From a virus (taxonomy: Duplodnaviria; Heunggongvirae; Uroviricota; Caudoviricetes), in the IMG/VR virus record IMGVR_UViG_2619619134_000012: a DNA stretch of 35,126 bases; one strand, given 5' to 3'. The translations under genes were made by a program, and so were the position numbers. Positions 1,156 to 33,544 of this stretch are shown in pieces (positions within the stretch are counted from its first letter, which is position 1; each line of letters opens with the position of its first letter). The notes below the pieces were generated by a model. The model did no database searches. It was given only the letters and a program-made list of their open reading frames with translations, and was not told the origin of the DNA.

Positions 1156-1533
1156 ATGAATAAACCTCTAATAGCCTTATTGCTCATCACCAGCTTCAGC
1201 GCATCTGCTGACAAAATCCCATCTTCTATCCAAAACCTGATTGCTGTTTACGACACCAGGACGCACAGCCTAGAAGATGGTGAGCTTACTATCAGATATA
1301 ACAAACGACTTTTGCTGGTAGATGCAGCTGAATCGATGTTCCAAGGCATCTGTAATGATTATTATATGAACAATTGGAAACCTGGCACGATCAAGAGAAT
1401 TACACTTCTTAATGTCACTAGCGATCAGGGCTTTGAAATCAATGCTGGAGGGGATGAGTGTAGAAAAGCTGGCACAATGAAAGACGAGCAGGCGCGCACC
1501 TATAGAACCAGCTTTATTAAACCTCTTCAATAA
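1156..1533 (+). CDS. Small secreted protein of unknown function (prophage-end cargo)
   Basis: 125-aa ORF with a typical signal peptide MNKPLIALLLITSFSASA|DK; AGGA ribosome-binding site upstream; AT-rich relative to the prophage core; sits between attL and ogr. Confidence 0.5.
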   Translation: MNKPLIALLLITSFSASADKIPSSIQNLIAVYDTRTHSLEDGELTIRYNKRLLLVDAAESMFQGICNDYYMNNWKPGTIKRITLLNVTSDQGFEINAGGDECRKAGTMKDEQARTYRTSFIKPLQ

Positions 1534-1905: not shown

Positions 1906-3006
1906 TTATTCTATTTCTAAATCATCAATCTTTACCTCAAGCTCCAGACTGGTAGTAAAACCATTATCCGGGCTGACCGTATGCGTCAACGTTGTAATGG
2001 TCCATTCGGCATCGTCGATAGGCTGTTTAAAGCCGCTCACCTTTACTGGCATTTCGGTGTAGAGATCTGCCCGGCCCTCTGCGAGCTGCAGCGAGAATGA
2101 CGCAACCCCACGCTGCAGGCGCTCCCATTGCATTTTTGCCGCACGCTCAGCATTGCTGCGGTTTGCGTAAGTACGATTTAGAACCAGTACGTTTTCATCC
2201 GTTCCCACCAGATAATCACCCTGTTTTGCTTCTGGCTCTTTTGGCGCGGTGGTTTTCTTCCGACGGCGCTTAACCTTGATTGTTTCTTTTTTCTTGGGTT
2301 CGCGGGTATGCAGCCAGCTGGCAATTACGCCGGTATAGGCACCACGATCAGCCAGGGTAAAACGATGACCGTCACCGACTTTACGCTCAATGGTGATAAC
2401 CGGCAGCGGCTTACCGCTCGCCGTTTTTCCCTGCCCCTGCCGGATAAACAACAGGTTTCCATCCTTAACGGAAGCAATCGCCCCATACTGGCGCGCCAGC
2501 TTCATCAGGAAACTGGCATCGCTTTCATTGGTCTGGTCCATGTGATCCAGCGCCTTGTCCGTCAGGTCTTTACCCAGCGCCATTTTGAGGTTATGCCGCG
2601 CTGCGATTTCCTTTACCACATCGCCAACGGTTGTCTGGTGCCATGACTTTTCGCGCCGGGTATTGAGGGTTTCACGGAAATCAGCGCTACGGGCACGGAT
2701 AGTCAGACGATCAGGAGCACCGCTGTGCTCAATCTCATCGACAGTAAACGCCCCTTTCGGGAAAAGCGGCTGTCCTTTCCACCCCAGCGCCAGCTGAATA
2801 ACAGCACCACGTCGCGGCAGAACGATCTGCCCGTCGGCGTCGTCCAGCTCCAGATCAAGTTGGTCAGCCTCAAAACCCCGGTTATCGGTCAGCGTCAGAC
2901 TCATCAGGCGCGCATCCAGCGCGGTTGTCACGTCCTTACCTTCAATAGTGATACTGAAAGCCGGGCTTTTGCTGTTCAGGTCAAAAAGATCAGAGCTAAA
3001 ATTCAC
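1906..3006 (-). CDS. D: Tail protein D (late control gene D family)
   Basis: 366-aa ORF with the gene order and sequence features of P2 gpD; overlaps the U stop codon. Confidence 0.85.
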   Translation of the reverse strand: MNFSSDLFDLNSKSPAFSITIEGKDVTTALDARLMSLTLTDNRGFEADQLDLELDDADGQIVLPRRGAVIQLALGWKGQPLFPKGAFTVDEIEHSGAPDRLTIRARSADFRETLNTRREKSWHQTTVGDVVKEIAARHNLKMALGKDLTDKALDHMDQTNESDASFLMKLARQYGAIASVKDGNLLFIRQGQGKTASGKPLPVITIERKVGDGHRFTLADRGAYTGVIASWLHTREPKKKETIKVKRRRKKTTAPKEPEAKQGDYLVGTDENVLVLNRTYANRSNAERAAKMQWERLQRGVASFSLQLAEGRADLYTEMPVKVSGFKQPIDDAEWTITTLTHTVSPDNGFTTSLELEVKIDDLEIE

Positions 3007-3488: not shown

Positions 3489-6268
3489 GATTCATATCCC
3501 CCTTGATCACTGAAATTACTGCGCGCTTTAGCCCTGGTCTTGCGCTCGCGTTCGTCAAGCTGTCGGGCAACTTCACGGGCAATATCTTGCGCACTCTGCC
3601 CTGGCTGAGCATAGATAGTGATCGGCGCGTGAGTTTCAAAGTGCATCACTGGCGGCGCGCTGGCAGATTTCGCAGGCTGGCTTTGTTTATATGCCACAGT
3701 AGGCAGACTGTAAGGATGTAGTGGAGCAGCCTCTGCAGGCGCTGCCGCTACGCCCATGACGCCTGCAACGACGGAAGCCAGCGCGGCAGTACGCCGCCTA
3801 CTGGTCACATGTGCGGGGCCGTTCACAATTTCAGGGCCGTTCTCCCCAACAATACCGAACTGACCGCGCGGAATAATCCCACCACTGTCATACATCCCGG
3901 CAAACGGAACCGCAGCAGCCGCTGCTTCACCAACCACCTGCACCTGTGCTTTATTTTGTGTTTTATTATTTCCGGTCATCCAGTCAGGCAGATAATCGGT
4001 GACTGAGGAAAGCTTGCTTTTGAGTGTCTCCCATTTGGCATTAATTCCATTGAGAATGCTGTCAATAATGGCGCTGCCCATGTCCTGAAACTTCGCAGGA
4101 AGCGCGGCAACATCAGCTAGGATCGAATTCCATTTATCACTAATAGATTGTCTGATATTGGCCCACGCCTCAGAAACGCCAGATTTTATTGCATCCCAAT
4201 TTTTAGCTATTAATCCCGGCAAGGTATAATTAAAGAACAGTGACTTAATCCCCTCCCACGCGGCGCTGGCCTTTTCTTTAATCCAATCCCATGCCGTACC
4301 TGTGGCATTACATACGGCATCCCACATGGCCTTGAACTTTGGCCCAAGCGTGTCCCAGTTCTGCCAGATATAAATAGCACCAGCGGCGATCAGCCCTATG
4401 ACAGCCAGTATAGGGTTTGCAAACATCAATCGGCCCAGCCATAAAACTGATTTCCCGATCCCTCCCAGCGCAGCACGAACCAAGCCACCCACCGATGCGA
4501 ACTTCAGGCCCAACATGCCCGCGCTCACTCTGATGATTGCCATCGGACCAAGGATTGATGCCAGCACCAAAGAGATAGCCCCTACAGCCGTTGCAGCAAC
4601 GGCAAATCCTGCAGCCATCTTGAATAAGGCAGACGTAAGCGAGGGATGGCGTTTGACAAAACCGTCCAAACGAGAGGCTAACTCCCCCAGCCAATCGGCG
4701 AGGTTCTTTAATGCAGGTGCTACGGTTTCACCAATACTCGCCATCGCATTAGTGAATGTCCCGGTAGCAGCCTCCCATTTATTCCCCAGGGTGTTCAGCG
4801 ATGCATCAACACGCTCCCTAAGCGATGCCTGATTTTCAAGCTTTGCTGCAGTTTCTCTATATCCTTCAATCCCTTTGGATAGCATAATGTTCAGCGCTTG
4901 TAGCGTTTCCGCATCATTGCCAAACAAATCTTTCATGGTTGCCATTTGGGTTTCTGGATTTAATTTTTTAAGTTTCTCCAGCTGAGCGTACATATTTTCC
5001 AGACCACCAAACCCACCCTTCCCGTCAGAGAAGTTGAATTTAATACCCGCGCCCTTTTCTTTCAGGTCATCGTTAACCGCCTTAATATTGTCAGCATCCA
5101 GAGCGGCCTGAAAAATCTTTCGGTATGCATTACCGGCAGACTCACCAGCCATACTCCCCTGATCAGCCATAACTAACAAAGGCGCGAAAGTTTTGACCGC
5201 TTCCAACCCCTTCTTATTGATGATATTCATCGCGCTGCTGATTTTTGAGAACCCCTGCAGCATATTTCCTGAATCTACCCCCGCGTAGAATCCTTTCTGG
5301 ATCACGTCCATCAGATTCATCATGTCTTTTTCGGAGGTCTGAGTAGCATCTTGTAACTTAGCCGCAAACTCAGCTGCTGCAGTGGGAGCCATCTGTAACT
5401 GCACGCCAAGATAAGCTGCTGACTCTCCCAAGCCGCCCAGGATGACCTGCGCCGACATACCCTGACGGCGTAGCATAGTCATCATGTTCTGAAAGTCGGC
5501 TGTTGTTCCCGGCAGCTTATCGCCCAAAGCAACTGCAAGCCGGTTAATTTTTTCAAATTCAGGCGCTACCTTTCCGCCCGGTCCCATCATTGAACCGGCG
5601 AGCTGATTCGCTGCATTTTCTGATTCTGAATAGGCTTTTACTGGAGCCAACAACGTCATGCCAGTAGTTACCCCAGCCGCCATCGCCCCTGCACCATTAC
5701 CTGCCAGAGAGTTCCTTAACTCGCGGGTCTTTTCAGCCTTGGCTTTGATGGCGTTGAGCTTTCGCTGACGCTCGCCAACTTCACGCAGCCTGCGCTCCTG
5801 CTCAGCCAACTGTCGGTTATACCGCTCAGTTTCTCGTGCAATCCGTGCCGTCTCACGCGCTCCGCCCCCAGCAGATAACCCCAGCCGATAAAGCTCAGCC
5901 CTGGCTGCCGCCATCTGGCGAGTTTCCTGTTGCTGTTTTTGTTCAAGACGTGAAACAGCACGCCACTGAGCTTCCAGCGCCTGCGTTTGTTTTTTTGTCG
6001 GGGATTCCAAAGATGACATTTCGCGCGTCATCATTTGAGCGCGTAGCCTCGCCTGATCCAGTTCGGCACCAGTACGGCTAACACTTTTAGTTAGTTGATC
6101 GAAAGATTTAAGCTGACCTCCAGCATCACTCAGCTTTTTAATCTGATCGCGGGTTTGTCGAATAGCTGATGCCAGCTCCTTAGAGCCAGCCTGTGCATTT
6201 TTAAATGGGCGGGTTAACTTATCCACCGCCCCCAGAACTACCTGCAGTCGCAAGTTATTATCACTCAT
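3485..6268 (-). CDS. T: Tail tape measure protein
   Basis: About 927 aa, coiled-coil-rich middle and hydrophobic segments typical of tape measure proteins; start placed at ATG 6268 (MSDNNLRLQ...) overlapping the E' stop; the ORF track's upstream start 6316 is less likely. Confidence 0.8.
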   Translation of the reverse strand: MSDNNLRLQVVLGAVDKLTRPFKNAQAGSKELASAIRQTRDQIKKLSDAGGQLKSFDQLTKSVSRTGAELDQARLRAQMMTREMSSLESPTKKQTQALEAQWRAVSRLEQKQQQETRQMAAARAELYRLGLSAGGGARETARIARETERYNRQLAEQERRLREVGERQRKLNAIKAKAEKTRELRNSLAGNGAGAMAAGVTTGMTLLAPVKAYSESENAANQLAGSMMGPGGKVAPEFEKINRLAVALGDKLPGTTADFQNMMTMLRRQGMSAQVILGGLGESAAYLGVQLQMAPTAAAEFAAKLQDATQTSEKDMMNLMDVIQKGFYAGVDSGNMLQGFSKISSAMNIINKKGLEAVKTFAPLLVMADQGSMAGESAGNAYRKIFQAALDADNIKAVNDDLKEKGAGIKFNFSDGKGGFGGLENMYAQLEKLKKLNPETQMATMKDLFGNDAETLQALNIMLSKGIEGYRETAAKLENQASLRERVDASLNTLGNKWEAATGTFTNAMASIGETVAPALKNLADWLGELASRLDGFVKRHPSLTSALFKMAAGFAVAATAVGAISLVLASILGPMAIIRVSAGMLGLKFASVGGLVRAALGGIGKSVLWLGRLMFANPILAVIGLIAAGAIYIWQNWDTLGPKFKAMWDAVCNATGTAWDWIKEKASAAWEGIKSLFFNYTLPGLIAKNWDAIKSGVSEAWANIRQSISDKWNSILADVAALPAKFQDMGSAIIDSILNGINAKWETLKSKLSSVTDYLPDWMTGNNKTQNKAQVQVVGEAAAAAVPFAGMYDSGGIIPRGQFGIVGENGPEIVNGPAHVTSRRRTAALASVVAGVMGVAAAPAEAAPLHPYSLPTVAYKQSQPAKSASAPPVMHFETHAPITIYAQPGQSAQDIAREVARQLDERERKTRAKARSNFSDQGGYES

Positions 6269-6697
6269 CGCTTGCCCCGCTTCTCTGAATTGCCTTATGC
6301 CGCCACTCCAGCACATCAGTCAGCGGCATAACGTCAGTGATGGACGGCGACCAGTGAAAGATGGTGGCAATATCTGCCACCAGATCATCAACCGTCAGGT
6401 TGTCGGCAAATCGACAAGCACCGACTTCGGCAACAAAAAAGTCACCACCTCTACAGCCATTGCTGTCAGATCGGCGGGGTCCAGCTCTGCCATTTCCTGC
6501 GCGGTCAGCGTCGGAGTGGAGATTCGCGGGATCACAGTCATCATCGCGCCCACGTCCATATCCATAATGGCCTGCAGACGGGTGCCACGCAGTGCGCCGG
6601 ACTGCGGCTTGCGCAGCACAATTTCGGTAATTTCAGTTTTACCGCGCATGATGGGGGTATCCAGTTTTACGGTCTTTTCAGTCAGCTTGTCGCTCAT
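6261..6697 (-). CDS. Tail assembly chaperone E+E' (predicted -1 programmed frameshift product)
   Basis: After the slippery heptamer the -1 frame stays open for 57 codons (VAEVGACRFADNL...RSGASDE) and stops at TGA 6261-6263, overlapping the T start, as in the P2 E/E+E' arrangement. Confidence 0.5.
6395..6697 (-). CDS. E: Tail assembly chaperone E
   Basis: 100-aa ORF immediately upstream of T at the P2 gpE position; ends ...VVTFLLPKSVLVDLPTT and contains the slippery heptamer. Confidence 0.8.
   Translation of the reverse strand: MSDKLTEKTVKLDTPIMRGKTEITEIVLRKPQSGALRGTRLQAIMDMDVGAMMTVIPRISTPTLTAQEMAELDPADLTAMAVEVVTFLLPKSVLVDLPTT
6434..6440 (-). other. Slippery heptamer T TTT TTG (X XXY YYZ) for -1 ribosomal frameshifting
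   Basis: Minus-strand ACT TTT TTG near the 3' end of E; plus strand reads CAAAAAA. Confidence 0.55.
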
Positions 6698-6751
6698 GTT
6701 CGTATCCTGTTAATGAAATACTGGCGCGGCTGCCCGCGCCGTTAAGGTTAA

Positions 6752-7267
6752 TCAGAGGCCGAGGGCATTACGGTGTTCTTCCATCAGATCCACGCCGTCA
6801 ACGATTTCAACCATGTTGACCAGATCGACCTCATAGAGCACCTCACCGTTAATGGTCAGCTTCGCGTAGCTGTTAGTACTGCTGACCTTGGTGGCGCTAC
6901 TCTCGCCGGTTTTCCACTCGCCGGAATCCACTTCTTTATGACGTCCGCGCACAACCAGCTCAACGGCCTGCACTTCGCCAGTATCGTCACGCTGAATAGA
7001 GCCGGTGAAACGCAGCTGGATGCCGTCAACGGTTGCCTTGCCCATCTGCTTGAATAACAGCAGTTCGGTGCCGCCGATTGAAAATTCCGTGTCCAGTGCG
7101 CCGTCATCCAGCCCCATGTCCACATCCACCGCGCCCGGCATACCGCCGCCGCGATACTTCTCAAACTTGCGGGTGAATTTCGGCAGGGTCAGAGACTCGA
7201 CAATCCCCTGCCAGTTGTTCCCGTCGTTGAACAGGTTCAGGTGTTTTAACTTACGTGGTAAAGCCAT
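6752..7267 (-). CDS. FII: Tail tube protein FII
   Basis: 171-aa ORF recognisably similar to P2 gpFII (MALPRKLKHLNLFNDGNNWQGIVESLTLPKF...). Confidence 0.9.
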   Translation of the reverse strand: MALPRKLKHLNLFNDGNNWQGIVESLTLPKFTRKFEKYRGGGMPGAVDVDMGLDDGALDTEFSIGGTELLLFKQMGKATVDGIQLRFTGSIQRDDTGEVQAVELVVRGRHKEVDSGEWKTGESSATKVSSTNSYAKLTINGEVLYEVDLVNMVEIVDGVDLMEEHRNALGL

Positions 7268-7276
7268 GGTGTCCCC

Positions 7277-8449
7277 TTACGCGCTGACCTGGCTGGAGAA
7301 ATCCAGCAGGTACTGATCGGTGATGCGCTGGCGCAGCATCAGGTTTTCAAGCGGCGGCACCGGCGTGTAGTCGTAGTCGATAGTGAGTTTCCCTGCTTTC
7401 AGGGAGTCTTTATCGTTCACCGACTCATCCAGCCAGCAGTCTGCACCGATGATGTAGCCCTGCGTTTTCAGGCTGCGCAGCTTGGCGCGGATACCTTCGA
7501 TAATGTCACGGGCCAGCGATGGGTTGAGCACGCCATCCACCGCCCACATGTGCGCTTCAGCGATGGTGTCAGCCAGCACCTGCGCCGTGCGGGTGTAGTT
7601 CTCAAAGGCAAACAGCGGATCGTCACTGAGGCAGCGGGAACCCCAGAAGCGGAAGCCGTCTTTGCGGATAAGCGTGGTGACGTCATTCTGGTTGAGCAGT
7701 CCCGCATCAGTTGCCGGGTCCTGCAGATCCCAGAACACATCAGCGGAAATGCCGGTGACACCGTTCACGCCCACGTTGGACAGGGTCTTGTGCCAGCCGG
7801 TCTGCTCGTCAATTTTGGCTCGCAGGCCGAGCGCACGGGCGGAGGCGTAAGCTGTCGCGTCTGCATTCAGCACAGTGTCAAAGTTGATAAAGTCAGGCCA
7901 GATCAGCATCCCCTCGCGCTGGCTGAAATTGTCCCGGTAAGCAATGGCTTCCTCCACCGTCTTGCAGCCATAGGCAGACAGGTAGGCAAACCCGCGCAGA
8001 CTCTGCGCCACGCTCAGCAGCTCAGTGGCAACCGCCTGCGTGTCGTGTCCCGGCACACCGAGAATGCGCGGCTTGACACCGAGCTGCGACTGCGCCGATA
8101 GCAGCGCTTTCATGCCCGTTTTTTTACCGTCAGCAGTCACACCGCCGATAATGTTGGAGGTGGTTTCCGCTTCGGTTTCGCCCTGCGCCACGCGCACAAC
8201 GACGGTCACGGGTTTAGCCTGGTCTGCAATCGCATCCAGCGAACGGGCCAGCGTGCCGGACTCTCCCGCTTTGCCGCTGGCGGTCAGCACATCGGTCAGC
8301 AGAATCGGCTTGTTGAGGGGAAACATGGACGCATCAGCATCATCGCCGGTGCAGACCATGCCCACGATGGCGGTGCTCACCGTGGTAATGGATCGGGTGC
8401 CCTCGTTGATTTCAACAACGCGCACCCCGTGGTGGTAATCCTGAGCCAT
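7277..8449 (-). CDS. FI: Contractile tail sheath protein FI
   Basis: 390-aa ORF recognisably similar to P2 gpFI ([32 protein letters not shown]...). Confidence 0.9.
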
Positions 8450-8525
8450 AGCGGCGAACCTCCTGATTGGAATAGGCTTCGCCCTATGTTGTATTGATTA
8501 CGTCACGCAGACAGCTGTGCGGCGT

Positions 8526-8543
8526 TGTCCTGTTAATCACACA
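8526..8543. promoter_or_regulatory. Candidate Ogr-dependent late promoter element (TGT-N12-ACA) upstream of FI
   Basis: TGTCCTGTTAATCACACA; its centre lies about 85 nt upstream of the FI start codon, compatible with a -55-centred activator site and a ~30-nt leader. Confidence 0.35.
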
Positions 8544-8742
8544 ATGTCGCAGGATCTTTCAGGATGATACTGCCTGGAAAGTATCCACATATCTTCATTA
8601 ATGCTTAACCATACACAAAATGACATAGACATTTTCCGCAATGATCATCCATAATAGTATCTTCCTCTTGCTGCACTTACTTTTAGCACATAGCTAAGTA
8701 GGTTGTTTTTCTCAAATTTACTGTTCATAAAAACACAAGACA

Positions 8743-9930
8743 ATGAATACATATACACTAACAAGCTACAGCATAATTTACTCTATTTTGATTCCTTTTA
8801 TTATATACTTTGCACTATCTATTCTCCCTGTTTTTCGCAGACCAATAATAGAAGATGGTCCAGGGAAATATATTTATCTTGACCCATTAAGAGGCCTTGC
8901 TGCAGTTTTTGTATTTATACACCACTCAATAATGATCTACAATTTACATACGATAGGTACTTTTGCACCAGACGGGGCATTTTCTTACGCATCACAAGCA
9001 GTAACTGTCACATATTACCACTTCGGTCAATCATCTGTGATGATTTTCTTCATGATTACTGGTTTCTTATTTTTTGGGAAAATATTAAATTTCGAAAAAA
9101 AATTTATAAGTGACGACTTCTTTTTATCCAGAATAAAAAGATTATTCCCCGCAATGTGTTCTTGCTTTATCCTTTATATTATCGCATGTTTTCTTTTATC
9201 TGACACCACAGCTAATAACAATTATTTAGAACATGTGTTATCTTGGTTTTCATTTGGTTTTATAAATCTACCAAAAGTTTCAAGCAACATAGATGGTTGG
9301 ATGTTAGTTGCGGGAGTTTTTTGGACGTTAGTTATTGAATGGAAATTTTATCTCATCACCCCTTTATTGAGTTCATTAATTAACACCAAAATTAAATCAA
9401 TTTGTTTTATTCTAATTGCATCTTGCATAACAATACAGTTATTTATAAATAATCAATTAACTGAGAAAGAGGCATCCATATATCTCTGTTTTATTAGCGG
9501 ATTTGTTGCAGCCATAGCCAACAAGTATTATAGAGAGAAATTATCAATGTTATTTACAGGATTTATATCAGCATCATTAATTACTTCCATATACGTATAT
9601 TGTTTTTATAATACCATTGGCTCTTATAACTTCCAAGTTACTGGTGCATTATTTTTGCTGTTTATATCAATAGTATCAGGGAATTCTTTTTTTGGAATCC
9701 TAAAAATTAAAGCTCTGCACTGCGCAGGAAAATGTAGTTATAGTGTATATATAATGCATGCTTTAATATTGAATATTATTTTCTTTGTTATGGCAAAACA
9801 ATATGATTATTACGTTTGTTTTTTAGTGGCTTCTGTAACTCTAGGAGTGCTAACCATTCTTAACTACGTGTTTGTAGAAAGAAAATTCATATCAGGAAAG
9901 CAAGAGAAATTAAAGCAAGCAACTATATAA
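8743..9930 (+). CDS. Acyltransferase family 3 integral membrane protein (OafA/Oac-like O-acetyltransferase)
   Basis: 395-aa polytopic membrane protein with acyltransferase-3 signatures (YLDPLRGLAAVFVFIHH; FFMITGFLFFGK; WTLVIEWKFY); strongly AT-rich; opposite strand to the flanking tail genes; occupies the P2 Z/fun position between G and FI. Confidence 0.8.
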   Translation: MNTYTLTSYSIIYSILIPFIIYFALSILPVFRRPIIEDGPGKYIYLDPLRGLAAVFVFIHHSIMIYNLHTIGTFAPDGAFSYASQAVTVTYYHFGQSSVMIFFMITGFLFFGKILNFEKKFISDDFFLSRIKRLFPAMCSCFILYIIACFLLSDTTANNNYLEHVLSWFSFGFINLPKVSSNIDGWMLVAGVFWTLVIEWKFYLITPLLSSLINTKIKSICFILIASCITIQLFINNQLTEKEASIYLCFISGFVAAIANKYYREKLSMLFTGFISASLITSIYVYCFYNTIGSYNFQVTGALFLLFISIVSGNSFFGILKIKALHCAGKCSYSVYIMHALILNIIFFVMAKQYDYYVCFLVASVTLGVLTILNYVFVERKFISGKQEKLKQATI

Positions 9931-9937
9931 ATAGAAA

Positions 9938-9962
9938 TGGCGCCAATACCGCAATGGCGCCA
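9938..9962 (-). terminator. Hairpin between the convergent acyltransferase and G genes; candidate terminator of the H-G transcript
   Basis: Two copies of the self-complementary TGGCGCCA (9938-9945, 9955-9962) form an 8-bp stem; on the minus strand it is followed by the T-rich ATTTCTATTTATATAG. Confidence 0.4.
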
Positions 9963-9977
9963 CTATGAGATAAAATT

Positions 9978-10409
9978 TCAAATCGGCAATGGCGGCCAGT
10001 AAAATTCAGGCGCAATAGCTGTTTCTACCGGGATAGCCTTAACATCCCGTTTGTAAAGCATCCATTCAGAGAGACTTTTTTTGTTGCCATCACTGATATC
10101 ACCTAACATCAATTCTGTGCGCCAGTCCGCAGTAATACTGTCGGCATATGCCAATAACTCAGCACGACGCGCTTCTGCCGCAGCTATCAGTTCCTCATGT
10201 GTTGGTGGAGTCGGATCGCTCCAGACAGGCAGACCATCCTCACCTGCAATACGAATTTTATCAGGTGGAGACTGAAGAAATGTCTCATAAACATCATCAC
10301 TGATTTCTATGCCATCATCAGGCCAGGAGCCAGCCTGTTCGTAGACTTCCTTAAGTGATAACGGATAAAAAGCATTGTTTTTAGGACCGTATATATAATT
10401 ATTCATCAT
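9978..10409 (-). CDS. G: Tail fibre assembly chaperone
   Basis: 143-aa ORF immediately downstream of the tail fibre gene with a 1-nt overlap, at the P2 gpG position. Confidence 0.75.
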   Translation of the reverse strand: MMNNYIYGPKNNAFYPLSLKEVYEQAGSWPDDGIEISDDVYETFLQSPPDKIRIAGEDGLPVWSDPTPPTHEELIAAAEARRAELLAYADSITADWRTELMLGDISDGNKKSLSEWMLYKRDVKAIPVETAIAPEFYWPPLPI

Positions 10410-12139
10410 TAATATCCAATCGCTATCCAGCGGAAGTTGAAGGTTCCAGTAGATTCAGAACAACGTAATTTGAATGAACTGCTGTTTATCGGAGATGCTG
10501 CTGCGGCTGGTACAACTATCGAACCATTATCAAATACTGCTGATATTGACACCATTTTATTTGCAAAAGCGATGGGAAGATTGACAGTTGTCCCACTTCC
10601 TGACGCTCCACCTGATGCTGCTGCATCATATCCCCATTGCACAATGAACCCATCAGGACCTTTCCTCCACCCCCGGTCAATCCCTGAATATGACCAGCTA
10701 CTCATATCAGGAACCTGCCCTGAACCTGTACCCACATCTCTACTCGCCGCGGTGCCCACAGCCGAGATGTTGACCTTGGTTGCCAGTCCATTGTTGAGAT
10801 CAGTTTGAGTTAATTGCGGGTACCATGGACTCCATTTGGTGTTGGTTTTATCTAACGAAACCCTGATCCAAATATGTCCACCTGTTGTCAGATAAACTTG
10901 TAATCCGTTATATGCCGCAGGAAGAACCAGAAGAGTACCATCATCCTGTTCAGGATAATTTTTCCCTGAAGTGGCGCTGACTGCCACCTCCTGTCCATAA
11001 ATACCAAATGCATCGTCTCCTCCCAGCGCATTGAGGTTTACTGATGCCGGAAGGTATTGTCCTTTAATCAGGAATGCTTTTTCCAGACCAAGGTATTGTA
11101 GAAGGGCAGACACGCTTTTCCCGCTGAGGTTAGTCAAAGTGGCATCAAGGGGCTGTTTTCCCGCCAGCGCGTTCATCACTGTTGTCGCAAAGTTAGGATC
11201 ATTCCCCAGCGCAGCTGCCAGTTCATTCAGTGTGTCCAGCGCCTCCGGCGATGAACCAACCAGCCCAGCAATAGCTGCCTTCACAAATGCTGTAGTGGCA
11301 ATCTGCGTATTGTTCACAGTCTGCGCCGCAGTCGGAGCCGTTGGCGTTCCGGTCAGGGCCGGGCTTGCCAGTGGTGCTTTCAGTGCCAGCGCATTGTTAA
11401 TGGTGGTACTGAAATTCGGGTCATTATTGATAGCTGCCGCAATTTCTTTCAGCGTATCCAGCGTTGCCGGTGCGCCACCAATCAGGGCAAGAATAGCAGC
11501 CTGCACAAAGGCCGTGTTTGCAAGCTGCATGGAATTATTGCCTGCCACCGCCGTCGGCGCTTTTGGCGTACCGGTAAGTGTCGGACTGTCTTTTGGTGCA
11601 TACTGCGAATGAGGATCAACAGCAGCAAGATGCTTTGCCATCAGGTCATCCACATACACCTTAAGCTCCAACACCTTGTCATCCACATATTTGCGAGTTG
11701 CCAGCACCACTGCAGGGTCTATTTTCAGGGTGATGTTATCGGTGCTGCTGGTAATCAGTACCATACGCACGGTCTGCGTACGTCCGCTGCCCTCCGCCAG
11801 CTTCGGCTTGTAGCTCTCCGGGCAGTTTCCCACAGCGATCAGTGCTCCGGTTTCATCAAAAAGGCCGACTTCACGAATCCACCACCCACCCTCATTTTCC
11901 GGGATCACCTGCTCAGCAATAATCTGGCTGCTGTTCTGCGGGTCGATATACAGCATATTCAGCGCTGCGCGGCGCTCCTCTGTAACTAATGCGGTCTGTT
12001 GCGCGTTGGGTGTGGGCAGCGCACCGCCACCGCTACCCACCGCCATATGGGTAATTTTAAGCGGGACACCGAGCGCGGCGGCGCTTGCCAGTTTCGCCGC
12101 GCCGATATCCGTCAGCAGGGTGTAAAATTTTGCGCTCAT
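10409..12139 (-). CDS. H: Tail fibre protein
   Basis: 576-aa ORF with a P2 gpH-like N-terminus (MSAKFYTLLTDIGAAKLASAAALGVPLKITHMAVGSGG...) and internal tandem collar-like repeats. Confidence 0.85.
   Translation of the reverse strand: MSAKFYTLLTDIGAAKLASAAALGVPLKITHMAVGSGGGALPTPNAQQTALVTEERRAALNMLYIDPQNSSQIIAEQVIPENEGGWWIREVGLFDETGALIAVGNCPESYKPKLAEGSGRTQTVRMVLITSSTDNITLKIDPAVVLATRKYVDDKVLELKVYVDDLMAKHLAAVDPHSQYAPKDSPTLTGTPKAPTAVAGNNSMQLANTAFVQAAILALIGGAPATLDTLKEIAAAINNDPNFSTTINNALALKAPLASPALTGTPTAPTAAQTVNNTQIATTAFVKAAIAGLVGSSPEALDTLNELAAALGNDPNFATTVMNALAGKQPLDATLTNLSGKSVSALLQYLGLEKAFLIKGQYLPASVNLNALGGDDAFGIYGQEVAVSATSGKNYPEQDDGTLLVLPAAYNGLQVYLTTGGHIWIRVSLDKTNTKWSPWYPQLTQTDLNNGLATKVNISAVGTAASRDVGTGSGQVPDMSSWSYSGIDRGWRKGPDGFIVQWGYDAAASGGASGSGTTVNLPIAFANKMVSISAVFDNGSIVVPAAAASPINSSSFKLRCSESTGTFNFRWIAIGY
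11153..11587 (-). repeat. Internal tandem duplication in the tail fibre gene (two units of about 70 aa)
   Basis: Residues about 185-254 (SPTLTGTPKAPTAV...DPNFSTTINNALALK) and 259-329 (SPALTGTPTAPTAA...DPNFATTVMNALAGK) are clearly related. Confidence 0.6.
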
Positions 12140-24438: not shown

Positions 24439-24729
24439 TCAGTCAAACAGAGAATAATTTGCATCAAATTCATGACTTGTGGCTTCGACTTTCGTAATAA
24501 CTATCAAGTAACCAAGTCCATCAGATAAAGACACCGGATACTCCAGCTCAAGCCAGAAACAGTCATCATAAGTTCTTCCCATCCAGTATCCGCCGCCGCA
24601 CTCTTTTGGGCGTTGAAAGAAAACCCACTGACCTGGAATGATTGTTTCCAGCGTTTGACCGCGATATACAATTTGATACTTGTTGTCTTTAGACCCCATA
24701 GCTAACGCCTCGCATAGCTCGTTGTTCAA
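24439..24729 (-). CDS. Hypothetical protein (96 aa), last gene of the SOS cassette
   Basis: ORF in a lower-GC stretch 43 nt downstream of the DinI-like gene on the same strand; no family recognised. Confidence 0.5.
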   Translation of the reverse strand: MNNELCEALAMGSKDNKYQIVYRGQTLETIIPGQWVFFQRPKECGGGYWMGRTYDDCFWLELEYPVSLSDGLGYLIVITKVEATSHEFDANYSLFD

Positions 24730-24772
24730 CCTTGCGAGCGCCAGAACTACGTTCTGCCTCTCACAACGTTAT

Positions 24773-25006
24773 CTAATGTAACCAGCTGTCGTCCTCCCAG
24801 ACCTGCTGCATAATTTCCATCACTCGCTTTTTGTCTTCATCCAGTTTTAACCCGCTCAGTTCAACACCATTGGCACTGCCCTTACGGATACGAATTGCTG
24901 TTTTGGGATACAGAGGGCGCAAATTACGGTAAAGCTCGGATTCAAGGGCTTCCAGTGTGGCCTGGCTAATCTTCTGCTCTTTATCGATCATTATTTCAAT
25001 GCGCAT
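24773..25006 (-). CDS. DinI-family protein
   Basis: 77 aa (MRIEIMIDKEQKISQATLEALESELYRNLRPLYPKTAIRIRKGSANGVEL...KKRVMEIMQQVWEDDSW) with the DinI pattern MRIE...K...AL..EL.R...P...R...K.R..EI.Q..WE...W; own AGGGAA ribosome-binding site. Confidence 0.8.
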   Translation of the reverse strand: MRIEIMIDKEQKISQATLEALESELYRNLRPLYPKTAIRIRKGSANGVELSGLKLDEDKKRVMEIMQQVWEDDSWLH

Positions 25007-25017
25007 ACAGATTCCCT

Positions 25018-25206
25018 TTAACTGGTAACGTCCATTGACCGGCTGTATTCATGGCTGCGAATTTTCGCCATCAACTCGTCTGTCAGTTCGGACACCCACT
25101 GGATAGCCAGCCGCTTTTCTTCGTCGCTGCACTCACTAGCCGCTACAAGCTTGATAAAAAAATCAATACGCTGGAGCTTCAATGACTCCAAAAGATAGTC
25201 CTGCAT
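25018..25206 (-). CDS. Hypothetical small protein (62 aa), first gene downstream of the LexA box; possible Tum-like antirepressor component
   Basis: Start chosen at ATG 25206 (MQDYLLESLKLQRIDFFIKL...) because of a strong AGGAGG site 6 nt upstream; the longer track ORF (to 25383) would run through the promoter and LexA box. Confidence 0.5.
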   Translation of the reverse strand: MQDYLLESLKLQRIDFFIKLVAASECSDEEKRLAIQWVSELTDELMAKIRSHEYSRSMDVTS

Positions 25207-25254
25207 CTTCCCTCCTATCATTACACGGATACACAAGCACTGTATATATACCCA

Positions 25255-25270
25255 CTGTTTATATAAACAG
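25255..25270. promoter_or_regulatory. LexA box (SOS operator)
   Basis: CTGTTTATATAAACAG is a perfect CTGT-N8-ACAG palindrome with an AT-rich spacer, about 50 nt upstream of the 62-aa gene; a second, imperfect half-box (CTGTATATATACCCAC) starts at 25240. Confidence 0.6.
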
Positions 25271-25364
25271 TATAGTAGGAAAGAAAAAATGTAAAACTCT
25301 TTTTTGTCAGTTAATTGGATGTACTGACGCCAGTCAATAAAGCACGAAATGTTAAACAGCATCC

Positions 25365-27764
25365 TTAGTACCATTGACGCCATTTGTCATCTTCCTGCAG
25401 CCTCTGGTTACGGTAAAAAATACGTAAACCGGCACCGGATGGAATGCTGCCGCCACGCAGAAGCAAATCAATCTCAGATGCACTACCTTCAAACCCTCTG
25501 GCAGTCAGTTCTGCCTCAAGCTGCAGGCGCTGCTGCTCCGAAATACTCTGTATGTATGCTTTTTTCCGCTTCGGTTTTACCAGTCTCAACCTGGCTGTCA
25601 GCTCCCGCCGTTCCTTCTGGCCCATGTTGTGGAGATATTCCTGCAGCTCCTTCTCATCCATGGTTTTAATATCGGGTAAATCACCCCCTGATTTGTTCAG
25701 ATTTTCAACAGGGGGACAGTTATTGCCACGAGTCCAAGGGGCGCAAGCGCCCTGGTCGGCTGCCGCCTCCTGAACGTCAACGGCCTTACGAACCTTTTTC
25801 CACTTCATCGCGTGCGTGCAAATCTTGCCCTCTGCAATCGGGGACCAGATGCCATAGATACGGATACCGTGATCGCCGTAGGCGCTCGGTTCGTCGTTAA
25901 GCTCATAAGCAGTGCGGACAAGGTGATGTTTGCGGGGAACCAGTACACCGCCCTGCTTCATGATGTAGGTGGCAAAGCAACCCGCATCTGCAGCCGCCAG
26001 TACCGCATCCAGACGTGGATTATCCAGTACAGGCGCACCCGCTTTGCGTTCGCCCTGTACTCTCGCCGCCTGACCAGCCAGCAAGCGCAGCTCGCGGTAT
26101 GCCTGGCGCCCCGGAATACCAAAGAAACGAAATTGCTGGACACGGTGCAGTGACGCCCAGGCGCTGACATGCTCGGCGCTGTCACGCAGTGATCTGCCGG
26201 TTTCTTTGCTGATTTCTTTAGCCAGCCCGCGCCCGTCGATGTTCTTACTGATGTATTTGGCGATGTAGCTTGTCGGTGTGCCCTTGCGCGGGTTGATTAG
26301 CTCGGACTTGAAGCGCGGTCCGGTATTGGTGCCCAGCTCCTCGCGGTCTTCACGGATGGCAAACTTTCGCAGCAGCGCGGTGATGGAACGACGGTCTTTT
26401 TTGCGCATAAAGCACAGAAGATGCCAGTGCACAGTGCCGTCATGGTGCGGCTCTGCAACGCGGACGCCGTACCAGCGCAGCCCGGCTTTGTGCATGGCCT
26501 TGCGGAAAGCGGCGAATGTATCAACCAGATAGTCACTGCTCTGCCGGACCGTGGCGCTGGTCCATTTCGGATTAGGTCTGCCGTTGTTGAGGGTTGCGTG
26601 GAAGCGTGACGGGCAGGTGATGGTATAGAACACGGCGCAGTCTCCGCGCATTTCCGCGATCAGCTCCAGCCCTTTAACACAGGCCATCATTTCATTACGG
26701 CGGTGCGCCGGGTTGCTGTTGCTGGCGTTCACCACATCTTCCATATCCAGCGTGTCACCGTCTTCGTTGACCAGTTCATGCGAGCGGAAGAACTCCAGCG
26801 ATTTGCGGCGCTGCTCGCGTTTGTGGATCACGGCTTCATAGCTGACATACGGGGACGCTTTCTTGTTGACCAGGCAGACGGCGCGCAGCTGCCCCCCCCG
26901 CCACTCGCAGCGCATCTGCCACAATTTGCGATACCACCAGTCCGCGCACAGCATGCGAGCCAGCGACGGTGGGATCAGTTCATAAGGCACCGACTTGCGG
27001 CGGCGCTTTTTGCGGCGCAACTGCTCAAAGGCAGGCGGGATGACCTCAAGGCGCATGGCTTCTGCTGCAACCCTTTCCCATGCCTGGCGGATTTCTTCTG
27101 GTTTAACATCGTCACTGACAAACAGATCACTGCAGGCCGTATCAAGACACATGCTCATATGTGCCGCAACCAGCGTGGAAAGGCGCTTTACCTGCTCCTG
27201 ATTCATTTCAGGCAGTACCAGCAACCCCTCCAGCCCGTCCTGGATCGCCATGAACCGGAAAGACGCAGACACCTGGCTGTCACGCACGCGCTCCAGCCGC
27301 TCCAGACAAGGCCTGATTGTTTCGCGCAGATAGCGGGAATAAGCTTTAGCCCTGCCCAGGCTATGGAAGTATTTAATCCGCTCCAGCAAAGGCTTGCTGA
27401 TATGGGCAGGCATGGCGCTAACATCGGCAATAATCACCAAATCGGGATTAACGCGCTGCTGTTCGCGGGCCATTTTGGCATGGCTAATCAGCCGATCCTG
27501 CTCCATTTCACGCTGGACAGGATCGCGGGATTCATTAAAGAAATAGAGTTCCCAAACCTCATCACTCAGCGCCTCACGGCGCAGATGCTCCTGCTCGTTA
27601 TCCGCAGCATACAGAGTGATGAGGTTTGAAAGCGCAGACTCCGGCGCAACGTCCGCCGGTTCCAGATACGGATTAACCGCTTTTTTTGTGGTATTCCATG
27701 GAAAGGCTGCGGCGGCCTCATTCGAGCCGCCGGTCGCCGCCATTTCGAAGCTGGTCAACTTCAC
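25365..27764 (-). CDS. A: Replication initiation protein A (rolling-circle nickase)
   Basis: 799-aa ORF with P2 gpA-type motifs ([22 protein letters not shown]; [12 protein letters not shown]); exact start uncertain. Confidence 0.85.
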
Positions 27765-27816: not shown

Positions 27817-28761
27817 TTAAGGCGTTTCCGTAGGTTCGAATTCGTCCCACTCTGGAGGCAGCCCCATTAACCAAAGGCTCAAGGCCGGATTTAACTGGCC
27901 TCCATTTTCCATCTGTGCATTTGAGCCAGTCAGCATCTTTCCAGAAGCCGTTAACCGGACCGGGCCTGCAATCTGTGCCACCACATCCAGACGATCTGTC
28001 GATATTTTCCCTTTGCGAATCCTCCCCCCAGGATCCCCCCCCCCTTGTGGTCGCTGGCTGTTGGCGTGGGCCAGCCAGCCATTTTTACCTGTTGCGCAAG
28101 GCTGCTGCCGGACATGCCCTCGGTAATCCCTCGCCCTCCCCGCCTGCTGTCGCTGGCACTCGGAGTTGTCCAGCCCGAAAGCTGCGCAGCTGTCTGCAAG
28201 TTCAATCCTCCCTGACGGCCCGCGTTGCTGGGATGCTTCCAGGCATTCGCTGTTGGTGTGGACCACCCAATAAGTTCTGTCCCGGATGTTCGGGGCACCG
28301 ACGCTCGCAGCCGGAAACGCACTCGCCCCGAAGGCATAACCCAAGGCTTCCACGTCAGTCTGTACAAGGTCGATCCAGTCATTTGCGTCAGCACTTGCAG
28401 ATTGCTCGCCAAAGACAACGACAGGGCGACGCTGCCCGACCAACCAATGCATGGCGGGCCATAAGTGCCGCTCGTCAGCAAACCCTTTTCCTTTGCCTGC
28501 CGCGCTGAAAGGCTGGCATGGGCAGGAACCTGTCCAGACTTCTCTGCTGTCTTCCCAGCCCACACGGCGCAGGGCATATGACCAAATGCCAACCCCTGCA
28601 AAGAAATGGACCTGAGCAAATCCTCGTAAATCATCGGGTCTGACATCTTCAATACTCCTTTCATCTACAACACCCGGCATAATGCGACCGGCAGCCATGT
28701 GTACGCGCAGCCGCGCAGCTGCAAACGGGTCTATCTCGTTGTAATAAGCCCACGCACTCAC
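27817..28761 (-). CDS. DNA (cytosine-5) methyltransferase-like protein; coding frame ambiguous (possible frameshift or phase-variable gene)
   Basis: Frame starting at GTG 28761 carries C5-methyltransferase motifs I ([12 protein letters not shown]), IV ([15 protein letters not shown]), VIII ([13 protein letters not shown]) and a motif IX-like C-terminus ([19 protein letters not shown]); an overlapping second frame and a G10 tract complicate the call. Confidence 0.45.
27951..28664 (-). other. Alternative-frame ORF (237 aa) fully overlapping the methyltransferase-like gene, with three tandem GW[STP]TP[TS]A repeats
   Basis: Open across about 700 nt in a second frame; tandem repeat units start near 28279, 28175 and 28077 (period about 100 nt); passes through the G10 tract. 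Confidence 0.3.
28035..28044. repeat. Homopolymer tract C10 (G10 on the coding strand) inside the methyltransferase-like gene
   Basis: Plus strand ...GGATCCCCCCCCCCTTGTGG...; a second C6 run lies at 28024-28029. Confidence 0.9.
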
Positions 28762-29615
28762 GCCTGCACCTCATACTTAACGCAGCAATCAGGACCGCCA
28801 GCAGGATCAAAACCAATCCAGTGATGAGGTTTAGAAGTAGCGATGATTTCCACGGCGGACTTACCATCACCGGCAGCCACACCCATGCTGCGCTTTGCCG
28901 TCAGCCGATAGCGGGAGAAATTGCGATAAAGAGAACGGGTCAAAGATGTATCACTGTTGGACACAATGACCGGATGACCTTCTGATGAACGACGCTCAAG
29001 AATAGACGCCAGATGATACTGATCATCCTCAGTAAATCCGGCGGTGTGATAACCGGTAAACGTTCCGTCATATGGCGGATCGCAATAAACCACATCACCA
29101 GTCTTCAGCAGTGCCAGTGTTTCCTCATAGCTGGCACAGATAAACGTTGCACGTTGTGCCTTTTCTGCAAAAGCGCGTATTTCGTTTTCGGGGAAGTACG
29201 GATTTTTATAATTACCGTAAGGAACATTAAAGTGACCACTCAAGTTATAGCGGCACAGTCCGCGATAACAATGGCGATTAAGATAAATAAACATGGCTGC
29301 GCGGCAATCCACAGGCCAATCACGTCCATGGTTAAATTCTTTTCGAATATCGTAGTAATCCTCTGCCGATTTATTTTTAGCAAATAAATCCTTGCCAATT
29401 GAGATTAATAATTCAGGTCCGCTTTTAATGGCATTGTAAAGACTTATCAGATCTGGATTAATATCCGCGACAAGATAATGAGGATAGTCTGTCTCCATCA
29501 TCACAGCGCACGAACCCGCGAAAGGCTCAACCAGTCGCGGGCCTGCTGGAAGGTGTTTTTTCAGTTCTGGCATTATGGCGGTTTTATTACCCGCCCATTT
29601 CAGGATGGTGCTCAT
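28758..29615 (-). CDS. DNA adenine (N6) methyltransferase, Dam/D12 class
   Basis: Start at ATG 29615 ([18 protein letters not shown]...); motifs KWAGNK, FAGSCAV and DPPY; stop overlaps the start of the cytosine methyltransferase-like gene. Confidence 0.85.
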
Positions 29616-29839
29616 ACAGCCCCCCCTACGTAATGTTTGCCTTTCAGCTCTGCGATTTCCTGACAGGTGACGCAACACTGCACGCCCGGAATAGCGCGGC
29701 GGCGAGCTGGCGGGATCGGTGCATCGCAATCAATGCAGAGCACACGGGAAACGCCCGGTGTTCTGTTGCGGGCGGTGTGGATGTGGCGCTGACGTTCTTC
29801 TTCAACGCGCTGCTGTACAAGGTCCATTGAATCAGCCAT
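29612..29839 (-). CDS. TraR/DksA-family C4 zinc-finger protein
   Basis: 75 aa with CIDCDAPIP...CCVTCQ, a Cys4 arrangement typical of phage TraR-like proteins. Confidence 0.7.
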   Translation of the reverse strand: MADSMDLVQQRVEEERQRHIHTARNRTPGVSRVLCIDCDAPIPPARRRAIPGVQCCVTCQEIAELKGKHYVGGAV

Positions 29840-32190: not shown

Positions 32191-33216
32191 ATGACCATCA
32201 GAAAACAGCCGAACGGAAAATGGTTGTGCGAGTGTTACCCGAACGGGCGTGACGGTAAGCGCGTGCGCAAGCAATTTGCGACAAAGGGCGAGGCTGTAGC
32301 ATTCGAAAACTTCACCATGGATGAAGTGAACAAAAAGCCGTGGCTGGGTGAAAAGGAAGATCGGCGGCGTTTGTCAGAATTGATTGAGCAGTGGCATTCA
32401 CTTTATGGGCAGACGCTGGCTGACCCCAAACGCCTTATGGCAAAACTCAGCATTATTTGTAATGGCCTTGGTGATCCCATCGCCTCAGAGTTAACCGCAG
32501 GCGATTTTACGAAATACCGGGAAGCACGTCTAAAAGGTGAAGTAAAAAATGAAGATGGCGTGCTTATGTCGCCAGTTAAACCCCGCACGGTAAACCTTGA
32601 GCAACGCAACCTATCCTCTGTTTTTGGCACGCTGAAAAAGCTGGGCCATTGGTCAGCCCCAAACCCGCTAGCCGGTCTGCCAACATTCAAAATTGCCGAA
32701 GGTGAATTGGCGTTCCTAGCCCCGGAAGAAATTAAACGCCTGCTGGATTCCTGTGCTGAATCTCAAAGCCCCAGCTTACTGATGATTGCAAAAGTATGCC
32801 TAGCCACTGGTGCACGATGGAGTGAAGCAGAAAACCTACAAGGACACCAGCTGTCGAAATATCGCATCACCTACACCAAGACCAAAGGCAAGAAAAACAG
32901 AACCGTGCCAATATCACAAGATCTGTATGACGAACTACCCAAGAACAGAGGGAAGTTATTCACGCCATGTAGAAAAGCCTTTGAGCGCGCAGTGAAGCGG
33001 GCCGGAATCGATCTGCCAGAGGGTCAATGTACTCATGTGCTGCGCCATACATTCGCCAGCCATTTTATGATGAACGGCGGAAACATACTGGTGCTGCGCG
33101 ATATTCTAGGCCATGCCGATATAAAAATGACAATGGTATATGCTCACTTTGCACCCGATCACCTCGAAGATGCAGTGACAAAAAACCCGCTTCACAATCT
33201 CAACTGGAAGCGCTAA
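32191..33216 (+). CDS. int: Tyrosine integrase of the prophage
   Basis: 341 aa with the C-terminal catalytic region HVLRHTFASHFMMNGGNILVLRDILGHADIKMTMVYAH; adjacent to the right att repeat. Confidence 0.9.
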   Translation: MTIRKQPNGKWLCECYPNGRDGKRVRKQFATKGEAVAFENFTMDEVNKKPWLGEKEDRRRLSELIEQWHSLYGQTLADPKRLMAKLSIICNGLGDPIASELTAGDFTKYREARLKGEVKNEDGVLMSPVKPRTVNLEQRNLSSVFGTLKKLGHWSAPNPLAGLPTFKIAEGELAFLAPEEIKRLLDSCAESQSPSLLMIAKVCLATGARWSEAENLQGHQLSKYRITYTKTKGKKNRTVPISQDLYDELPKNRGKLFTPCRKAFERAVKRAGIDLPEGQCTHVLRHTFASHFMMNGGNILVLRDILGHADIKMTMVYAHFAPDHLEDAVTKNPLHNLNWKR

Positions 33217-33333
33217 TTTATGGCGGCATTTTGGCGGCAGAGCATTAAAAACGCATAAAACGGACAAACACCAAATAACACTAACCCACTGTTTCTAAAG
33301 GTAACTCACTGTTTTTATTATACTAAAAATGGT

Positions 33334-33379
33334 ATGTAGGAATTTCGGACGCGGGTTCAACTCCCGCCAGCTCCACCAA
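33334..33379. repeat. attR: displaced 3' end of ssrA (46-bp core repeat)
   Basis: Identical to 1016-1061; followed by a terminator hairpin and a second integrase. Confidence 0.8.
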
Positions 33380-33412
33380 TTTTTGATATATTGAAGTTCA
33401 GTGAAGTCTATC

Positions 33413-33447
33413 AAGCCCGCATGGAACCAGCCTTGCGGGCTTTTTTA
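33413..33447 (+). terminator. Rho-independent terminator after the displaced ssrA 3' fragment (probably the ancestral ssrA terminator)
   Basis: GCCCGCA ... TGCGGGC stem followed by TTTTTT. Confidence 0.55.
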
Positions 33448-33544
33448 CGTCTATAGTAGTCTACCGAGAATTGCTAGAATCTACTCGTTATGGCACCCTT
33501 TTTGGGACCCAACACAAAGGGTCCAAAACATGAGGGTCCCAAAC

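Follow-up and report, generated by a model that had tools for sequence, protein, structure and literature searches.

A probable OacB-like membrane O-acyltransferase gene among the tail genes of a P2-like prophage at ssrA

Why should a P2-like prophage carry a low-GC membrane acyltransferase gene among its tail genes, on the strand opposite to all of them? The question is raised by IMG/VR virus record IMGVR_UViG_2619619134_000012, a stretch of 35,126 nucleotides (hereafter the window) that holds a complete P2-like prophage, running from ogr and gpD through the tail, head and replication genes and a CI-type repressor to the integrase. The gene lies between the tail sheath gene and a tail-fibre chaperone gene, and we regard it as near certain that it encodes a functional acyltransferase-3 (AT3) enzyme carried as prophage cargo. 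On balance we also favour a fuller account, in which an AT3-only O-acyltransferase resembling OacB of Shigella phage Sf101 is carried at ssrA and modifies a surface polysaccharide of the lysogen. The most economical reading is that of a well-supported but fairly ordinary lysogenic-conversion gene.

The acyltransferase gene and the tail genes on either side of it are as follows.

8743-9930, plus strand, stop codon included: gene of the AT3-only membrane O-acyltransferase, 395 amino acids (aa)
7277-8449, minus strand: tail sheath gene, with Pfam domains Phage_sheath_1 and Phage_sheath_1C and 98.9% identity to locus L002
9978-10409, minus strand: tail-fibre assembly chaperone gene, 143 aa, Caudo_TAP (PF02413, E=1.1e-24), GC at third codon positions (GC3) 37%

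The acyltransferase gene is the sole open reading frame (ORF) of at least 50 aa lying wholly between the sheath gene and the Caudo_TAP gene; the only other ORF listed there, one of 59 aa at 8703-8882, overlaps its start. It is oriented opposite to every flanking tail gene. Its GC content is 30.3% and its GC3 26.0%, against 60.0 and 73.9% for the sheath gene, 55.4 and 68.6% for the tube gene, 57.0 and 72.0% for the capsid gene and 58.1 and 74.2% for the terminase gene, and 500-nt windows over 8501-10000 contain 29-37% GC, compared with 55-60% on the sheath side. Such values are nowhere near those of the prophage core and mark the gene as compositionally foreign. The amino-acid make-up of a membrane protein was considered as a source of the low GC content and rejected: the third codon positions deviate most, so hydrophobic amino-acid content is not the cause. 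An initial annotation, made from the sequence alone, had described the gene as alone between chaperone and sheath, opposite in strand to all the tail genes around it and far more AT-rich than the core. All three points were borne out, the last by a GC3 of 26% that is clearly distinguishable from the 69-74% of the core genes.

In a profile search, PF01757 (Acyl_transf_3) aligned from position 2 to position 324 of its 326 with residues 44-371 of the protein, at E=3.8e-25 and a score of 89.1 bits, the cut-off being 31; PHROG 3333, 'O-acetyltransferase', was matched with E=9e-36. This is the single Pfam domain in the 395 aa, and no SGNH domain is fused to it. Motifs were located in an alignment of the acyltransferase with 23 homologues of 27-50% identity, using published AT3 motif definitions (PMC7448272, PMC9833829). 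Invariant across this alignment are the R-X10-H motif of the first core helix (R50/H61), the FXXXXXL motif (F103/L109) and both arginines of RXXR (R130-I-K-R133), where core helix 3 meets the cytoplasm. The FFXISG-type motif of core helix 2 reads F102-F-M-I-T-G107, with Thr replacing Ser, and the SXXXY motif of core helix 9 is S332-Y-S-V-Y336; all AT3 motifs are thus present, and these two are likewise invariant in the 24 sequences.

An AlphaFold2 model built from the homologue alignment (predicted local distance difference test, pLDDT, 89; predicted template-modelling score, pTM, 0.89) has eleven membrane-length helices and contains the ten-helix transmembrane acyltransferase fold of the AT3/TmAT superfamily; its only strong matches among solved structures are HGSNAT and GWT1. 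The distribution of charge, positive in loops 29-45 and 118-130 and along the C-terminal tail, places the RXXR loop and the C-terminal tail inside and the N-terminus outside, a predicted N-out, C-in topology. By profile, motifs and predicted fold together, the protein is a member of the AT3 (PF01757)/TmAT superfamily, and the family, the OafA/Oac-type motifs and the polytopic 395-aa protein of the initial annotation could all be retained. A sequence-profile search of the PDB detected no solved structure for the acyltransferase, none of the PADLOC defence-system models matched it, and no NCBIfam family did so at E up to 0.1, in a library whose AT3 coverage is unchecked. Some of the named AT3 enzymes of enterobacteria, OpgC for example, probably have a model in NCBIfam.

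How the gene came to occupy this site can be read from L002, the nearest prophage among complete Escherichia coli genomes. Window positions 7002-8559 align to L002 2503-4060 at 98.9%; the similarity breaks off after 8559, as does that to L001, and returns at 11087, within the fibre gene, at 93% DNA identity. Judged by this alignment, the interval 8560-11086 is a foreign block of about 2.5 kb that comprises the acyltransferase gene, the chaperone gene and the C-terminus of the fibre. The block and its edges include these further features.

8533-8559, minus strand: relic of an invertase gene, its last 27 nt (3' end), recognised from the L002 comparison
10409-11086, minus strand: C-terminal 226 residues of the fibre, its receptor-binding end, GC3 37%, within the swapped block
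11087-12139, minus strand: N-terminal 351 residues of the fibre, part of the backbone, with a Phage_tail_fib N-terminal domain, GC3 57%

The fibre domain Gp53-like_C (PF21882) lies at residues 495-576. In the same interval L002 has a DNA invertase and an invertible, alternative set of fibre tip and chaperone; its coding sequence for a 'recombinase family protein' occupies 4034-4591 on the minus strand, and the matches of complete E. coli genomes, confined here to window 8450-8559, fall under the same name. From this correspondence, the block is a replacement of the invertase and the invertible fibre segment. Other cargo at the site in related prophages had been anticipated and was found, in the form of either the invertase with its invertible fibre segment or a pair that includes an acyltransferase of the MBOAT family: L001 (E. 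coli H9Ecoli, NZ_CP029180.1), at 6893-9390, carries a frameshifted invertase followed by an MBOAT O-acyltransferase of 486 aa and a 341-aa protein that has no Pfam match.

The gene had initially been described as inserted. That it is foreign cargo at a hotspot stands; what arrived is a mosaic block of about 2.5 kb that includes the chaperone and the fibre C-terminus and takes the place of an invertase module. Simple insertion into an empty slot was rejected, as the divergence runs through the chaperone and fibre C-terminus and the 27-nt invertase relic is present. A repeat search of 8400-11400 revealed no insertion sequence ends, target duplications or crossover-site inverted repeats that explain the junctions. 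The chaperone and fibre-tip DNA (9931-11086) matched eight of 5,426 complete E. coli genomes at 72-73%, each over at most 20% of the query, and had no match in the phage collection.

The acyltransferase gene is missing from every one of the same 5,426 genomes. The exact protein is on record on about 100 contigs, with sources labelled E. coli and Citrobacter; 24 contigs were read, and in all ten contexts displayed it occupied the same prophage slot and had the same fibre and chaperone beside it. Apart from members of its own 99% cluster, the nearest proteins are about 50% identical, and a scan of species-representative genomes returned only relatives of at most 33% identity. For two proteins, P0009 (Mixta) and P0012 (Citrobacter/Caudoviricetes), the contig record was not found. 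A tblastn search of the phage collection (50,697 phage records) identified ten records that encode a detectable relative, the best annotated matches being those of Escherichia Peduoviridae phage ESSI2_ev239 (30% identity), where the gene adjoins the integrase, and of Shigella phage Sf101, whose OacB is 26% identical.

We then compared the surroundings of relatives on viral contigs, which were dereplicated to 16 locus types and whose neighbours were annotated and counted. The immediate neighbour is a tailspike, fibre or chaperone gene in 9-10 of the 16 locus types, three being unclear and three clearly without such a neighbour; for an assumed per-locus rate of 0.1-0.2, which is estimated and not measured, the probability of at least 9 in 16 is about 6e-6 to 1.5e-3. 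Homologues stand directly beside tailspike genes in L020, L022 and L023, in L032 and L039, and in Sf101. Large neighbours in L024 and L027 are probably tailspikes as well, the L024 match being below the Pfam cut-off and the L027 role inferred. In the P2-like loci L021, L028 and L033/L034, homologues of 30-33% identity lie between the chaperone and sheath genes. Two homologues of 48-49% identity, in L015 and L018, are found on another phage backbone (DUF2612/Baseplate_J type), convergent with a Caudo_TAP gene and a Gp53-like_C fibre; compared with the window, their fibre tips are 43% and their chaperones 35-42% identical.

The clearest case of joint transfer is provided by L025, a P2-like locus with gpI and gpJ homologues, and L026, a Mu-like locus with gp44-gp48. 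The sole DNA common to them is a stretch of 2.4 kb at 79.4% identity that covers fibre tip, chaperone and acyltransferase, and that is distantly related to the block in the window. Identities of the AT3 protein, the chaperone and the tip vary together, at 77, 73 and 86% between L025 and L026, 55, 48 and 59% between L015 and L018, and 48-49, 35-42 and 43% between the window and L015 or L018; in the remaining locus pairs the AT3 proteins are about 30% identical and the tips at most 36% or without meaningful alignment. At the level of sequence, this pattern shows that the AT3 gene, the chaperone gene and the fibre tip have been exchanged as one block.

Three of the loci have features of their own. 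In L021 (5339-8123) two opposed chaperone genes and an orphan, inverted fibre tip enclose the AT3 gene, an arrangement that resembles the middle of a former invertible segment, with no invertase before the sheath gene. L026 contains three ORFs with AT3 domains within the 6 kb of 5980-12048 (5980-7230, 9365-10072 and 10915-12048). In L014 (6123-9194) a homologue of 43% identity has a chromosomal, non-phage setting, with a mig-14-family gene on one side and cpxP/cpxRA on the other, so that the subfamily extends beyond phages.

Next we considered when the gene would be read. The P2 reference record places fun(Z), on the opposite strand, after G and a terminator and before the pF activator site, the start of the F operon and FI. 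By its gene order and orientations, the slot of the acyltransferase gene is the P2 fun(Z) slot, with the same geometry. Two elements at its borders correspond to those of P2.

8526-8543, minus strand: TGT-N12-ACA dyad, putative Ogr activator site for the late pF promoter of the sheath operon
9938-9962, no strand: GC-rich hairpin with a stem of 8-10 bp, containing two copies of the palindromic TGGCGCCA

The dyad lies 77-94 nt upstream of the sheath ATG, aligns with the annotated P2 pF activator site and marks the left limit of the conserved backbone. It is retained in L001, L002, L033 and L021 although the surroundings diverge, and three of the eight TGT-N12-ACA dyads in the window fall in gaps where late promoters are expected (upstream of the sheath gene and of gpV, and between gpO and terL). 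Ogr probably acts at this dyad to activate the late pF promoter. The hairpin separates the convergent acyltransferase and chaperone genes. Its RNA folds at -16.3 kcal/mol (z -3.7) on the plus strand and at -17.3 kcal/mol (z -2.2) on the minus strand, and on the minus strand a T-rich tail follows it, as is the case for the terminator annotated in P2 at the equivalent place after G (V operon); it is probably a bidirectional terminator. Because the gene points away from pF and the hairpin separates it from the fibre operon, it is probably expressed alone in the lysogen.

The same layout bears on a mainly lytic-cycle role, in which a late product would alter the receptor on the dying cell and so spare progeny from debris, lysogenic conversion being secondary or absent. 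Such a role draws support from L021, L025, L026, L028 and L033, where the AT3 gene directly follows the fibre and chaperone genes in the same direction and could thus be read from the late operon, and the same idea has been put forward for Serratia phage vB_SspM_BZS1 (PMC7556043). In the window, by contrast, the gene is opposite to both late operons and cut off from the fibre operon by the hairpin, and upstream of it there is no TGT-N12-ACA dyad beyond the pF site, which faces the other way. A mainly lytic role is plausible for relatives that have the gene after the chaperone on the same strand; for the gene in the window we judge it improbable.

For the favoured reading, a conversion enzyme at work in the lysogen, the following mechanism can be proposed by analogy with studied AT3/TmAT proteins. 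The ten-helix core and the one extra N-terminal helix would form a pore, into which cytoplasmic acyl-coenzyme A (acyl-CoA), most likely acetyl-CoA, would enter to be held by R130 and R133 of the RXXR motif and by R50. H61 would pass the acyl group to a sugar hydroxyl of a surface polysaccharide at the periplasmic face, the likeliest acceptor being the O-antigen repeat unit. The altered surface antigen of the lysogen would then lower the adsorption of phages that use this glycan. If the modified glycan is the fibre's own receptor, self-exclusion, release of progeny from debris, or both would result, and the common 2.5-kb block with the receptor-binding end of the fibre and its chaperone suggests that the modified glycan is indeed the fibre's target. 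We infer which donor and acceptor the enzyme uses, that it is expressed in the lysogen and what phenotype results; O-antigen as acceptor has, in our estimate, an even chance, and exclusion of the phage's own type a little less than that. The initial annotation had likewise proposed lysogenic conversion or superinfection exclusion as a candidate role.

Several observations weigh against this account. The first concern expression, and the region in which a promoter would be sought.

8560-8742, plus strand: AT-rich region upstream of the acyltransferase gene, 34% GC, missing from the nearest E. coli relatives

Sigma-70-like hexamers occur in this region, the best pair being TAGACA-18-CATAAT at 8626-8655 (10 of 12 positions), and a promoter of the gene's own is a plausible candidate. 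The number of promoter-like hexamers upstream, eight, is not above the 7.7 expected in shuffled sequences; a consensus scan for promoters and terminators did no better than shuffles, and we claim no mapped promoter. Of the AT-rich promoter region described in the initial annotation, the AT-rich stretch is thus confirmed and the promoter is not distinguished from chance. No clear Shine-Dalgarno sequence was seen before the acyltransferase ATG. In the block as a whole, GC3 is 26% for the acyltransferase gene but 37% for tip and chaperone, which makes a long common history of the three uncertain, and neighbouring genes can be co-inherited by linkage alone, so a cassette is no proof of functional coupling. 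As regards the substrate, identity to any characterised enzyme is only 26%; S146, one of the critical residues of OacB, falls in a variable periplasmic loop that cannot be aligned reliably and is paired there with A157; AT3 proteins also modify enterobacterial common antigen, capsules, periplasmic glucans and other acceptors; and the presence of the prophage in both E. coli and Citrobacter fits a widely shared acceptor no less well than it fits a serotype-specific O-antigen. Given the many AT3 acceptors and the 26% identity, O-antigen as acceptor is a prior expectation, not something the data yielded.

Beside the best hexamer pair we noted that a GATC at 8643-8646 overlaps another candidate -10 hexamer, GATCAT (8643-8648), and that the prophage has a Dam-like methylase of its own. 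Some phage O-antigen modification genes are phase-variable via Dam. With only two GATC sites upstream of the acyltransferase gene, this is at most a hint of Dam-dependent phase variation.

The points on expression would suit an inert passenger, a decaying or unexpressed remnant riding with the fibre-tip module: the promoter signal is at the level of chance, the ribosome-binding site is weak, and no complete E. coli genome has the gene. A remnant would not be expected to have a full-length frame with all catalytic motifs intact and a confident fold model, nor to recur in two genera as an identical protein on about 100 contigs, complete wherever the contig is long enough. Homologues at 28-50% identity keep the same residues, which indicates purifying selection within the family. 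We consider an inert passenger very improbable.

The points on the substrate belong to a different alternative, that of an active enzyme whose acceptor is not O-antigen but a glycan common to E. coli and Citrobacter, such as enterobacterial common antigen, the core of lipopolysaccharide (LPS), capsule or colanic acid, or periplasmic glucans, with masking or fitness effects exerted via that polymer. The identical protein in prophages of both genera and the wide range of AT3 acceptors speak for it, as does the 43% homologue between mig-14 and cpxP on a non-phage chromosome; P2-type fibres, moreover, are generally held to bind LPS core and not O-antigen. Against it, OacB, to which the protein is closest among the characterised relatives found, acts on O-antigen, and many relatives adjoin tailspikes (Tail_spike_N, P22-type Head_binding), which typically target O-antigen or capsule. 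The absence of any NCBIfam match at E up to 0.1 also counts against such an acceptor, to the extent that the library covers AT3. We take this alternative to be possible and rather unlikely, and continue to prefer a conversion enzyme of the OacB kind.

The recurrent block invites a more far-reaching proposal, namely that fibre tip, chaperone and acyltransferase form a portable 'recognise-and-mask' cassette, in which the enzyme acylates the glycan recognised by the linked tip. The cassette would move between unrelated backbones, P2-like, Mu-like and that of the third baseplate type. We put this forward tentatively and think it doubtful. If it is true, a new host-range module brings its matching self-exclusion or progeny release with it in one recombination event.

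Phage-borne AT3 acetyltransferases and the P2 hot spot between G and FI have already been described, as has an AT3 gene on the opposite strand among tail genes (PMC7556043). We found no description of this protein in our searches of the literature on AT3 genes of P2-like phages and Peduoviridae at the G/FI site. What the present analysis adds is the placement of the acyltransferase within a mobile block of fibre tip, chaperone and acyltransferase, and a second such block common to P2-like and Mu-like phages, an addition that specialists would hardly find surprising. Tip, chaperone and surface-modifying enzyme travel together, and this recurs with unrelated acyltransferase lineages and on unrelated phage backbones. 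Their co-travel offers a simple rule for predicting the glycan that a prophage fibre binds, and which prophage genes protect against which phages. If the enzyme does acylate a surface glycan, carrier strains of E. coli and Citrobacter would have a changed serotype and changed phage susceptibility, with relevance to serotyping, to vaccine and antibody targets and to the choice of therapy phages.

The remainder of the window was surveyed for its landmarks and for other cargo.

1-483: smpB, preceding the prophage
698-1060: tmRNA gene, between smpB and the prophage
1620-1883: ogr, at the start side of the prophage
1906-3006: gpD, after ogr
27817-28761, minus strand: C-5 cytosine DNA methyltransferase gene
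28758-29729, minus strand: D12-class N6-adenine (Dam-like) DNA methyltransferase gene
32191-33216: prophage integrase gene, following the CI-type repressor

The prophage is integrated just downstream of smpB and the tmRNA gene (ssrA). Beyond its integrase there is a second integrase of 457 aa (region 33401-34774), and E. coli sequences annotated 'integrase ... ssrA' match the window's right end (33300-35126) at 99.3%; together these suggest a tandem of two elements at ssrA. An ORF of 125 aa between the tmRNA gene and ogr (1156-1533, plus strand, 42% GC) has a signal-peptide-like N-terminus (MNKPLIALLLITSFSASA) and no match in Pfam or PADLOC; it may be further cargo at the prophage end. Another AT-rich patch (24439-25383, minus strand, 44-47% GC) lies between the portal-side end and replication gene A, at the P2 tin/old accessory position, and holds small orphan ORFs of 96, 77 and 121 aa, of which the 121-aa ORF has no Pfam or PADLOC match. 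The two methyltransferase genes adjoin one another in the early region, at 27817-29729.

We finally compared the locus with characterised systems. With fun(Z) of P2 the acyltransferase gene shares its setting: each follows a G-type chaperone gene and a terminator, on the opposite strand and back to back with the pF site and FI, and both are non-essential, lysogen-type cargo. Fun(Z), whose annotated coordinates correspond to about 528 aa, is credited in its annotation with blocking T5 growth, and nothing about it suggests an acyltransferase mechanism; P2 is not among the ten records with a relative in the tblastn search, which thus gave no homology to the Fun(Z) protein. The initial annotation had equated the locus with the P2 Z/fun position, and as a statement about slot and geometry this is right; by this search, the correspondence is positional only and does not extend to the proteins. 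The MBOAT cargo of L001 lies on the same prophage backbone (sheath gene 91% identical) and shares the slot, the orientation away from pF and the nature of a membrane O-acyltransferase, but its fold family is unrelated (PF03062).

Serratia phage vB_SspM_BZS1 has a pfam01757 gene (PhiBZS1_p24) among tail and fibre genes in the opposite orientation, which its authors read as O-antigen conversion that aids exclusion and progeny release (PMC7556043). PhiBZS1_p24 differs in having two further small divergent ORFs beside it; the likeness noted here is one of family, position and orientation. OafA and OafB of Salmonella, which are AT3-SGNH proteins, have in common with the acyltransferase the core motifs R-X10-H, RXXR, FFXISG-like and SXXXY, as well as a predicted pore of the same, HGSNAT-related fold. 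The acyltransferase differs in having neither an SGNH domain nor a linking helix after the core, an extra helix being present at the N-terminus instead, and the loop motif GG-F/Y-XGV-D/P/V specific to AT3-SGNH proteins is not evident in its alignment.

The closest characterised relative found is OacB of Sf101, at 26% identity. OacB is likewise AT3-only and similar in length (390 aa against 395 aa), and the alignment covers residues 15-388, including the extra N-terminal helix. It has 11 predicted helices and a periplasmic N-terminus, and seven of its residues are critical by mutagenesis (PMC8952252). Five of the seven are identical in the acyltransferase, R47, H58, F98, R116 and R119 of OacB corresponding to R50, H61, F110, R130 and R133, and W71 aligns with F80. 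The acceptor of OacB is known (rhamnose III, N-acetylglucosamine), and its host is a P22-like podovirus, in which the gene lies between the integrase and the tailspike, whereas the present gene lies between chaperone and sheath genes in a P2-like myovirus. Both genes are prophage-borne, and both are convergent with a receptor-binding gene.

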